Part shown: one piece after another, positions 2,524 to 46,016 of the stretch
How the letters are laid out: each line of letters opens with the position of its first letter
Position numbering within the stretch: the first letter of the stretch is position 1
NCBI GenBank assembly: GCA_032123355.1
Contig: JAQBFM010000079.1
Location: 1 to 54,837, forward strand
DNA length: 54,837 nt
Direction of reading: 5' to 3'
Source: Lentisphaerales bacterium
GTDB lineage: Bacteria > Verrucomicrobiota > Kiritimatiellia > SPBP01
Position numbers and translations under genes: made by a program
The notes under the pieces: model-generated
What the model saw: the letters and a program-made list of their open reading frames with translations, nothing else
Told to the model about the DNA's origin: nothing
The model's database searches: none

Positions 2524-2535
2524 CGTACAACTTGA

Positions 2536-2699
2536 AATCTTCGGGACAGGGTGGGTCCGCAGTCAGTTGAGCGGACGATTCCCAACCGGCGGTAAAAGCC
2601 CGCGAGTCCAGGTTGCATTTGACCGGGACAGATACGGTGAAATTCCGTGGCCGACAGTAATGGAGTCTTGTTACTTCTGAGTCTGGATGGGAGAAGATT
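2536..2699 (+). ncRNA. FMN riboswitch (RFN element)
   Basis: aatcttcggg(a)cagggtg...attcccaaccggcggt...agcccgcgag...ggtgaaattcc...ccgacagt...agtctggatgggagaagatt; P1 aatcttc/gaagatt; directly upstream of riboflavin genes. Confidence 0.95.
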
Positions 2700-2718
2700 G
2701 TTCTGAGCATCTCTTTGT

Positions 2719-7668: not shown

Positions 7669-7710
7669 CAAGTGGTAGTAACGCTGGCAATCAGTTCTTT
7701 TGTATCGATT

Positions 7711-8086
7711 GGTGGAGGCGTTCGGTCGCTCTTTCGCAACTGTGAAAGGGAGGAAAGTCCGGACTCCTCAGAGCAGGATGTCCTCGGGCTCGAAAGGGTA
7801 CCGGGGAGGCATTCCGTTAACCGGAATGGACGGACAGTGCCACAGAGAATATACCGCTCCGCATAATGCCTTGTGCACTATACGGAGTAAGGGTGAAAAG
7901 GTGGTGTAAGAGACCACCGGACCTTGCAGTAATGCGGGTTGCATGGCAAACCCCATCCGGAGCAAGATCAAATAGGGGACCCGAGGGGCTGCTCGCCCCG
8001 TTCCCGTGAAAGCGGGTAGGGTTCCGGGTAGATCGCATAAGATAAATGACCGACATCTGAACAGAATCCGGCTTATGTCCTCTGCC
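7711..8086 (+). ncRNA. rnpB: RNase P RNA (bacterial type A)
   Basis: gaggaaagtccggactc, agtgccacagagaa, gggtgaaaaggtggtgtaagagaccacc, ggcaaaccccatccggagcaag, aacagaatccggcttat; P1 ggtggagg/cctctgcc. Ends approximate. Confidence 0.96.
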
Positions 8087-9007
8087 TTTCGATACACTAA
8101 ATTAACCGGCAGGTCCGCCTGGGCCGTGCTGGCTGCTGCGTTGATTGCGTGTCTGCTATTCGCAGTAGCATATTTTCGGCTTCCGTCACTCTTGCCCGCA
8201 GGTCCAGGTGTTGAGGCAACGCCCTCCGACTGGGCTGCTGTTGTCCCGCTGCATCAATGCACGTGGTCGGTCTTCCAGACCACAGACGGCAAAACTGAGC
8301 CGGAAGCCGGTCCCTTATCGCAGCGCTTCAGGCTCGCCGGAACGCTCGTGTGGCTCGACCCTGACGGCACCGAGATCAAGAAAGCTATCCTCGCCGATCT
8401 CCAGGCCCGCACCGAAGAAATAGTCAGCGAGGGCACACTCGTCGGCAGCATAGAGGTCGTACGGATTCGACGTGAGAGCGTGTTGCTCAGAGATCGGGTA
8501 GGGGGGCAGGAAGAGGAACTTATTCTAACATACGCCCGCCCTACCCCTGAGCACGACCAGAACGATCCCCCTGCCGTGAGCGCCCCTGAGGGCCTTGAGC
8601 TCGGAGAAGGGGAACTCGTTATTTCAACCAACCGCTTTGGAGCCCAGGTCGGCGCAACCCGCTGGGTAATGTCCCGCGTCAGCGTCATGGGCTTTGTCGA
8701 CGAGATGTCCGAACATCCCGCTCGCGTCGCCAAGCTTTTCGATTCAATGAAGCCCGTCTATGAAGGCGACGGGCCTACGAGGCAGGTTTCCGGCTACGTG
8801 CTGCAACTCGAGGGCGAAGGTGACTTCTATCGCGATGTCGGCCTTAAGGAGGGCGATATTGTTCGCCGGGTGAACAATCTGCCCATGCAGAGCCAGCATC
8901 GCGCAATCTTCTGGATCGACCAGTTCCGGGCCAACAACGCTAATGCATTCCAGATCGACGTAGAGCGTGACGGGAAGGCCGTGCGCCTCGAATACCTCGT
9001 TCGCTAG
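8075..9007 (+). CDS. Type II secretion system protein C-like (N-terminal TM, HR domain, C-terminal PDZ-like)
   Basis: TM helix; FRLAGT..KAILAD...G..V.RIRRESVLL; GLKEGDIVRRVNN PDZ-like end; start uncertain (ATG 8075 or GTG 8126). Confidence 0.75.
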   Translation: MSSAFRYTKLTGRSAWAVLAAALIACLLFAVAYFRLPSLLPAGPGVEATPSDWAAVVPLHQCTWSVFQTTDGKTEPEAGPLSQRFRLAGTLVWLDPDGTEIKKAILADLQARTEEIVSEGTLVGSIEVVRIRRESVLLRDRVGGQEEELILTYARPTPEHDQNDPPAVSAPEGLELGEGELVISTNRFGAQVGATRWVMSRVSVMGFVDEMSEHPARVAKLFDSMKPVYEGDGPTRQVSGYVLQLEGEGDFYRDVGLKEGDIVRRVNNLPMQSQHRAIFWIDQFRANNANAFQIDVERDGKAVRLEYLVR

Positions 9008-37499: not shown

Positions 37500-37557
37500 C
37501 TAGCAGGGCTAGGGCTTTGACCCGCCGCAGGCAGGGCTAAGTCCGACGCACTGCTAG
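37500..37557. repeat. CTAG-bounded palindromic mini-element, copy 2
   Basis: ctagcag...ctgctag ends; right arm aagtccgacgcactgctag resembles copy 1 arms; inner cccgccgcaggcaggg. Confidence 0.7.
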
Positions 37558-45768: not shown

Positions 45769-45864
45769 TTCGCAACTCCTCAACCCTTTAGCCAAACTCA
45801 ACATCGCGGACCCATCAATCCGCTTGCCAATCCGTGTACGTCAGGCTAACCTGAATCATCTGGA

Positions 45865-45923
45865 CTAGCAGACCTGGGCCTTTGTGACCTGCGCAGCATG
45901 GCGCAAAGGCCTGGGTCTGCTAG
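45865..45923. repeat. CTAG-bounded palindromic mini-element, copy 3
   Basis: ctagcagacctgggcctttg ... caaaggcctgggtctgctag, a 20-bp stem with two G-U pairs, 16 bp upstream of tRNA-Arg. Confidence 0.8.
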
Positions 45924-45939
45924 CTTCGCAATCCACTAT

Positions 45940-46016
45940 GCCCCCGTAGCTCAGCTGTATAGAGCAGCGGCCTTCTAAGCCGCGGGTCGCAGGTTAGAGT
46001 CCTGCCGGGGGTGCCA
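45940..46016 (+). tRNA. tRNA-Arg (anticodon TCT)
   Basis: Cloverleaf: acceptor gcccccg/cgggggt, D stem gctc/gagc, anticodon stem gcggc/gccgc with loop cttctaa, T stem gcagg/cctgc, A20, encoded CCA. Confidence 0.95.

Follow-up and report, generated by a model that had tools for sequence, protein, structure and literature searches.

RNase P, the ribosome and T-boxes all read the elbow pair G19-C56 of tRNA, which as a rule is regarded as invariant. In a Lentisphaerales contig of 54,837 nt, the whole of which was analysed here and is referred to as the window, an earlier note had reported a tRNA-Arg(UCU) gene with U19 and A56 in place of these bases, and this was borne out by ARAGORN, Rfam, the sequence itself and five identical assemblies. 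The question raised by the locus is whether a tRNA with a swapped elbow pair still serves as a decoder, and whether the swap was selected for a property of its own or is an ordinary variant of the pair.

The tRNA-Arg(UCU) gene and its genomic setting

A single tRNA was called in the window by ARAGORN, tRNA-Arg(tct) (Table 1), and the Rfam tRNA model RF00005 matched it over its full length with an Infernal score of 65 bits, the gathering threshold being 29. The acceptor stem is GCCCCCG/CGGGGGT, with a G1.U72 wobble, and is followed by a TA linker. The D arm reads GCTC-AGCTGTATA-GAGC and is followed by A, the anticodon arm GCGGC-CTTCTAA-GCCGC, the variable loop GGGTC and the T arm GCAGG-TTAGAGT-CCTGC, while the 3' end consists of the discriminator G73 and an encoded CCA. 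As in a class I cloverleaf, the acceptor, D, anticodon and T stems are of 7, 4, 5 and 5 bp, respectively, and the anticodon and T loops are of 7 nt each. The canonical tertiary positions U8, A14, G15-C48, G18, U33, G53-C61, U54-A58, U55 and G57 were all kept. In the numbering used, G18 is at 45957, followed by U19 and by A20 at 45959, and U54-U55-A56 occupy 45994-45996; the class I pair G19-C56 is missing, the bases at these positions being different and still of Watson-Crick type. The identity set of Escherichia coli ArgRS comprises A20 in the D-loop, C35, U or G at 36 and A or G at 73. The corresponding elements of the window tRNA, judged from its sequence only, are A20, C35 (45975), U36 (45976) and G73 (46013). 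The G1.U72 wobble (45940 and 46011) is common to a genome of the same family (G002), other relatives having A1-U72 or G1-C72, and looks like the intermediate state of another compensatory change.

Table 1. Positions of the features discussed, all within the window.
Feature	Position	Strand	Basis
RNase P RNA, bacterial class A	7710..8091	+	Rfam RF00010, 219 bits
Possible weak promoter, TTGCCA-17 nt-TAACCT, upstream of the palindrome	45824..45852	+	Read by eye, a guess
CTAG-bounded palindrome, 20-bp stem, MITE-like, 16 nt upstream of tRNA +1	45865..45923	+	Fold, -48.9 kcal/mol
tRNA-Arg(UCU) gene, 77 nt, encoded CCA, G1.U72 wobble, A20, C35, G73	45940..46016	+	ARAGORN and Rfam
U19, D-loop base 3' of G18, where G is near-universal	45958	+	Sequence
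Anticodon TCT, reads AGA	45974..45976	+	ARAGORN
A56, third T-loop base, Watson-Crick partner of U19, where C is near-universal	45996	+	Sequence

The neighbouring sigma-54 activator protein was encoded on 19 contigs of other assemblies, and five of the loci fetched extended as far as the tRNA. These come from independent assemblies, namely two MAGs from NCBI, a JGI metagenome and two Logan assemblies of SRA data, and in each of them all 77 nt of the gene were the same as in the window. It was therefore concluded that U19 and A56 are not the result of an assembly or sequencing error. In the loci of these five other assemblies U19, A56 and the upstream hairpin were all present. The organism is contained in the samples of SRR8943091, SRR8943095 and JGI 3300048494.

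The window belongs to a Lentisphaeria-type MAG (G000) of 3.35 Mb in 231 contigs, estimated to be 94% complete. One of its 41 ARAGORN tRNA predictions has a UCU anticodon, in an assembly that is without several expected tRNAs (His, Gly-UCC and others). The canonical second copy on which the earlier note had made its reading depend was not found in this 94%-complete assembly, itself missing some tRNAs. The remaining Arg tRNAs have the anticodons ACG, CCG, UCG and CCU, none of them able to read AGA, and tRNA-Arg(UCU) is single-copy in nearly all genomes of the class. AGA had previously been taken for a rare codon, a view that did not survive: of every 1000 codons in long ORFs 6.8 are AGA, as are 9.3% of the Arg codons, and 1329 of the 1464 ORFs of at least 300 aa (about 90-91%) contain it, so that it is the least-used Arg codon of this genome, yet not rare. 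Taken together, the sole UCU tRNA found, the use of AGA and the five identical assemblies indicate that the window tRNA is a working AGA decoder and not an error or a pseudogene. Two near-identical predictions of tRNA-Leu(CAA) were also seen in this MAG (C15:5276-5361 and C126:602-684), one of them at a contig end and with a T-stem mismatch, and are probably an assembly break or a strain variant.

The neighbours of the tRNA gene encode an SppA-type S49 peptidase, two unknown ORFs, an MA-family peptidase, a rhomboid protein and a sigma-54 activator; integrase and phage genes were absent among them, and no exact-protein record was found for the upstream 393-aa ORF. A horizontal or phage origin of the gene was considered and rejected, because these neighbours are chromosomal housekeeping genes. 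An FMN riboswitch lies in the same window (2533-2702, forward strand, 86 bits). TruB and a homologue of a U5-methyltransferase are encoded in the genome, in which no T-box was found; the contact of the elbow with T-boxes, which the earlier note had also brought in, is therefore of no relevance here.

The CTAG hairpin that had been noticed just upstream of the gene, with a suggested effect on 5' maturation, is real (Table 1), but its proposed role was not supported. Its termini CTAGCAG...CTGCTAG are common to three copies in the window, the other two lying at 5-86 and 37500-37557, and partial copies were present on contigs C186 and C107. To judge from these copies, the hairpin is one member of a candidate MITE-like palindrome family and not a dedicated tRNA-processing signal. 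In one Logan assembly (L396, SRR8943095), the left arm of the palindrome has CCCAG where the window has CCTGG, by which two G.U pairs become Watson-Crick and a perfect DNA palindrome results. No consensus promoter of sigma-70 type and no terminator was found by a scan near the tRNA. As the possible weak promoter of Table 1 lies further upstream, the palindrome may be transcribed within the tRNA leader.

Distribution and covariation of the 19-56 pair

G19-C56 was present in 28 of the 29 class relatives fetched, G002 included, and the remaining one (G006) had A19-U56. When 401 genomes of the class were sampled, 302 matched a generic tRNA-Arg(UCU) pattern, and a base other than G at position 19 was found in three of these, namely U-A in G000 and A-U in both G006 and G266; the tRNA-Arg(UCU) sequence of G266 is the same as that on a contig labelled Victivallales (L115). 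Within the searched genomes, the U-A swap of the window was confined to one species-level lineage. The window tRNA was 80-87% identical to the tRNA-Arg(UCU) of class relatives, which fits vertical descent, and the flanks of the gene in G002 (L005) had nothing in common with the window besides the tRNA. In genome G203 (C1:32469-32523), a second, divergent tRNA-Arg(UCU)-like copy was seen with G19, U56 and the T-loop TTTGATC, and with a canonical copy beside it; this second copy may represent either an intermediate with G.U or a duplicate in decay.

In an anticodon-free scan, 251 class genomes were searched for any tRNA with a TAGCTCA...AGAGC D-arm in which both 19 and 56 were changed. Only the tRNA-Arg(UCU) genes of G000 and G006 were recovered with a 9-nt D-loop, and only a tRNA-Thr(CGU) of G000 with an 8-nt D-loop, so that, of the few thousand genes in the 251 genomes that had one of the D-arm skeletons scanned, about three were swapped; 16 genes of G000 itself fitted these skeletons. 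The tRNA-Thr(CGU) gene (C153:29353-29428) has A19-U56, the D-loop AGCTGACA and the T-loop TTTGATT. All of the 34-35 relatives with a match for this tRNA, G002 among them, carry G19-C56; the gene of G002 has the same anticodon and T stems as that of G000, in which the swap was accompanied by a change from A57 to G57.

For a wider census, about 186,000 species genomes were scanned for tRNA-Arg(UCU) with a base other than G19, whatever the base at 56, and at least 120 matches were listed. Twenty-four apparent A19-C56 cases were rejected as a numbering artefact, their D-loops (AGYGGAAYA) having the GG shifted by one position, and such artefacts were removed by also requiring a base other than G at position 17. 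Among the matches listed there were then at least 96 genes, comprising 84 with A19-U56, eight with U19-A56, three with U19.C56 and one with C19.C56. The U-A genes listed were all from Pseudanabaena-type cyanobacteria (eight species-level genomes), and their D- and T-loop sequences were the same as those of the window tRNA. The A-U genes listed were mostly from Chitinophagaceae and other Bacteroidota (about 70 species), with others from Opitutaceae, Polyangiaceae, Victivallales, Acidobacteriota, Margulisiibacteriota and further groups. As far as these genes can tell, U19-A56 is fixed across Pseudanabaena-type species and A19-U56 across Chitinophagaceae. The rarity that the earlier note had claimed for the swap was thus upheld among relatives, with one U-A and two A-U cases in 302 class genomes, whereas near-uniqueness was not, given its presence in Pseudanabaena, Chitinophagaceae, metagenomes and phages.

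JGI metagenomes were scanned completely for tRNA-Arg(UCU) with U19, the cyanobacterial acceptor type being left out, and 46 contigs with 43 different tRNA sequences were found, A56 being present in 42 and C56 in four. In IMG/VR viral contigs, at least 120 tRNA-Arg(UCU) genes with a base other than G19 were found among the matches listed, all of them Watson-Crick swapped (96 A-U, 19 U-A and five C-G). Where position 19 was U, position 56 was A in 42 of 46 metagenome, 8 of 11 genome and all 19 viral contigs among the matches listed. Over all bases other than G19, the complement was found at 56 in 254 of the 262 genes among the matches listed (92/96 from genomes, 42/46 from metagenomes and 120/120 from viral contigs), the eight exceptions keeping C56; single-change U19.C56 forms were seen in seven contigs among the matches listed. 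This pattern indicates that changes at 19-56 are compensatory covariation across independent lineages, and it supports the numbering adopted for the window tRNA. The earlier argument that a double change which keeps complementarity speaks for selection rather than decay or error gained from both these counts and the five identical assemblies.

The most window-like U-A tRNAs on long metagenome contigs (L225, 5432-5508, and L232, 2068-2144) are both chromosomal, and the two contigs share a tRNA-DUF6057-PD40 synteny at 44% protein identity and with G+C contents of 40% vs 60%. No homologue of their DUF6057 and PD40 genes was found in G000, and the proteins neighbouring the window tRNA gave no tblastn match on the 46 metagenome contigs. 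The two contigs, whose diverged synteny has no counterpart in G000, therefore stand for a distinct and ancient lineage in which U-A was retained.

Interpretation of the swap

The flat outer face of the 19-56 pair is recognised by the ribosome, RNase P and T-boxes largely via stacking (PMC4810234; PMC7912444), and an engineered A19-U56 pre-tRNA behaved like the wild type when processed by a protein-only RNase P enzyme (PMC4797305, Table 4). As an isosteric replacement, U-A would still close the elbow, and the face contacted by RNase P RNA, the L1 stalk, uL5 and the A-site finger should still be present. RNase P presumably removes the 5' leader and stacks on the elbow of this tRNA, whose processing, charging by ArgRS (A20, C35 and G73 being kept) and use on the ribosome should be essentially normal. 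At worst, the elbow would be a little less stable, since two hydrogen bonds take the place of three and the purine is now on the T-loop side. The swap, lineage-specific and fixed, would then be neutral or close to it. In our judgement the gene is probably a functional single-copy tRNA-Arg(UCU) in which G19-C56 was changed to U19-A56 by compensatory substitution, a neutral or near-neutral, fixed and recurrent variant that is no regulatory device.

The order of frequencies, A-U far above U-A and U-A above C-G, appears to fit mutational accessibility, as A-U would be reachable by two transitions via a G.U wobble, while U-A and C-G would each need two transversions via a mismatch. The U19.C56 forms are plausible intermediates. 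Since C19-G56 swaps occur as well, selection seems to act on the pairing itself and not on its weakness. The earlier proposal of a selected weakened elbow accordingly lost its footing: nothing was found to indicate such selection, a swap as strong as the original pair occurs, and the order of frequencies fits mutational accessibility. Two observations may speak against pure drift, namely the location in G000 of two of the three swapped tRNAs found in 251 class genomes and an apparent over-representation of Arg tRNAs. The swap is rare in the class and recurrent in bacteria and phages, and is an ordinary natural variant rather than a new mechanism.

The apparent Arg bias was seen in several places. 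In the full tRNA set of Pseudanabaena cinerea one of 40 tRNAs is swapped, Arg(UCU), and in that of Puia sp. P3 two of 47 are, Arg(UCU) and Arg(ACG), both genomes having been picked because they carry a swapped Arg(UCU). In Puia sp. P3 (L209, L207), both of these tRNAs have A19-U56 and are 71% identical to each other, and the pair is canonical in tRNA-Arg(CCU) and in the other 44. On phage contigs, a base other than C56 was found in 11 of 24 other Arg tRNAs vs 18 of 567 non-Arg tRNAs; this enrichment was judged to be confounded by paralogy and was set aside, the swapped Arg paralogues being nearest to Arg(UCU), at 0.64-0.81 identity. One IMG/VR contig (L357) encodes five Arg tRNAs (tct, tcg, gcg, ccg and cct), all without C56 and with elbows of U-A and C-G type, and these look like a paralogous family whose anticodons diversified after the swap. 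A57 was present in about three of some 250 swapped tRNAs vs about one in six to ten canonical relatives, the rest having G57. A tentative and rather doubtful extension is that 19-56 is a preferred swap site in tRNA-Arg, and in Arg(UCU) especially, that G57 is required for it, and that elbow reading is relaxed or altered in the Lentisphaeria lineage. A preference for Arg might then arise from the reading of the adjacent D-loop base A20 by ArgRS. If true, which bases form the elbow pair would depend on selection that differs between isoacceptors and lineages, and the pair would be no universal constant.

Much of the same evidence bears on the possibility of adaptive tuning, in which the weaker U-A elbow was selected because it changes how stable the AGA decoder is, how it is processed or modified or how fast it translocates, perhaps together with a structured leader. 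Such tuning would account for the recurrence of the Arg(UCU) swap in unrelated lineages, for the restriction of swaps to Arg tRNAs in the two complete sets above and for the fact that the sole swapped tRNA outside G000 in the class sample is again an Arg(UCU), and the near-universal G57 of swapped tRNAs looks like compensation for a weaker pair. The broad scans were limited to Arg(UCU), however, so that enrichment cannot be shown from them, and common descent of the phage Arg paralogues confounds the count. Furthermore, C19-G56, as strong as G-C, occurs too, a G.U or mismatch state is fixed in no clade, and the swapped Thr(CGU) reads the commonest Thr codon, which argues against any link to rare codons. 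Adaptive tuning was therefore considered unlikely.

A lineage-wide relaxation, in which a factor reading the identity of G19-C56 was changed or lost and swaps drift to fixation more easily, is less likely still. It would explain why G000 has U-A in Arg(UCU) and A-U in Thr(CGU), both of which are canonical in G002 and 34 other relatives, and why two of the three swaps with this D-arm skeleton in 251 class genomes sit in one genome, for which a rough post-hoc chance estimate gave about 1%; the lack of any T-box found in G000 would also agree with it. This statistic is, however, post hoc and based on two events, TruB and the U5-methyltransferase homologue are present, at least 36 other tRNAs of G000 are canonical and no candidate factor was identified. 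That the gene encodes a tRNA that is in decay, without function or not used on the ribosome, a reading to which the altered elbows marking the non-proteinogenic tRNA-Gly of Staphylococcus aureus (PMC5622331) and the MITE-like hairpin in the presumed leader might point, is scarcely credible for a gene that is the sole UCU tRNA found while AGA is used genome-wide, that has a perfect cloverleaf with all remaining tertiary and identity positions kept, that shows a compensated change rather than a one-sided loss and that is identical across five assemblies.

The window tRNA and the census together show that all three alternative Watson-Crick pairs are tolerated at 19-56, in essential single-copy tRNAs and across whole clades. 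This favours the view that the elbow is recognised through its shape and through stacking and not by base identity. The swapped tRNAs are natural test substrates, and in annotation they should not be marked as pseudogenes. The possible excess of tRNA-Arg, the co-requirement for G57 and the occurrence of two swaps in one genome are points for tRNA specialists.

Comparison with known elbow variants

No description of natural U19-A56 or A19-U56 tRNAs was found in the literature searched, the coverage of which was incomplete, and the related work found was limited to engineered elbow mutants and the U19 tRNA-Gly of S. aureus. These U19 tRNA-Gly species serve cell-wall synthesis. The window tRNA shares U19 with this non-proteinogenic tRNA-Gly, for which the passage in PMC5622331 gives U19 and no matching change at position 56, and differs from it in being compensated and the sole AGA decoder found. 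Among engineered molecules, the G19A/C56U pre-tRNA-Gly of Thermus thermophilus likewise has a compensated elbow and showed near wild-type kinetics (PMC4797305); unlike the window tRNA, it is an in vitro construct with A-U, for which the enzyme assayed was plant PRORP3 rather than a bacterial RNase P ribozyme.

The tRNA-Arg(UCU) genes of IMG/VR phages are Watson-Crick swapped like that of the window, but lie on viral contigs, often in tRNA clusters, whereas the window gene is chromosomal and looks vertically inherited. In the Chitinophagaceae (Puia sp. P3, L092/L209), in G006 and in G266/L115 (Victivallales), a compensated swap is found at the same pair and in the same isoacceptor. These carry A19-U56, in which the purine stays on the D-loop side and two transitions suffice, in contrast to the two transversions needed for the U-A of the window, and Puia swaps its tRNA-Arg(ACG) as well.

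The canonical argU-type tRNA-Arg(UCU) of 28 class relatives (L003-L030) resembles the window tRNA in its 77 nt, 5-nt variable loop, G53-C61 and encoded CCA, in the 9-nt D-loop AGYNG-N-AYA, including A20, and in the anticodon loop YUUCUAA. The relatives have G19-C56, and the window tRNA has U19-A56 together with the G1.U72 wobble common to G002. In Pseudanabaena cinerea FACHB-1277 (L102/L174), U19-A56, the D-loop AGYYGTATA and the T-loop TTAGAGT are all as in the window; the Pseudanabaena-type tRNA, fixed in at least eight species, nevertheless belongs to an unrelated phylum and has different stems, and its swap was therefore taken to be of independent origin.
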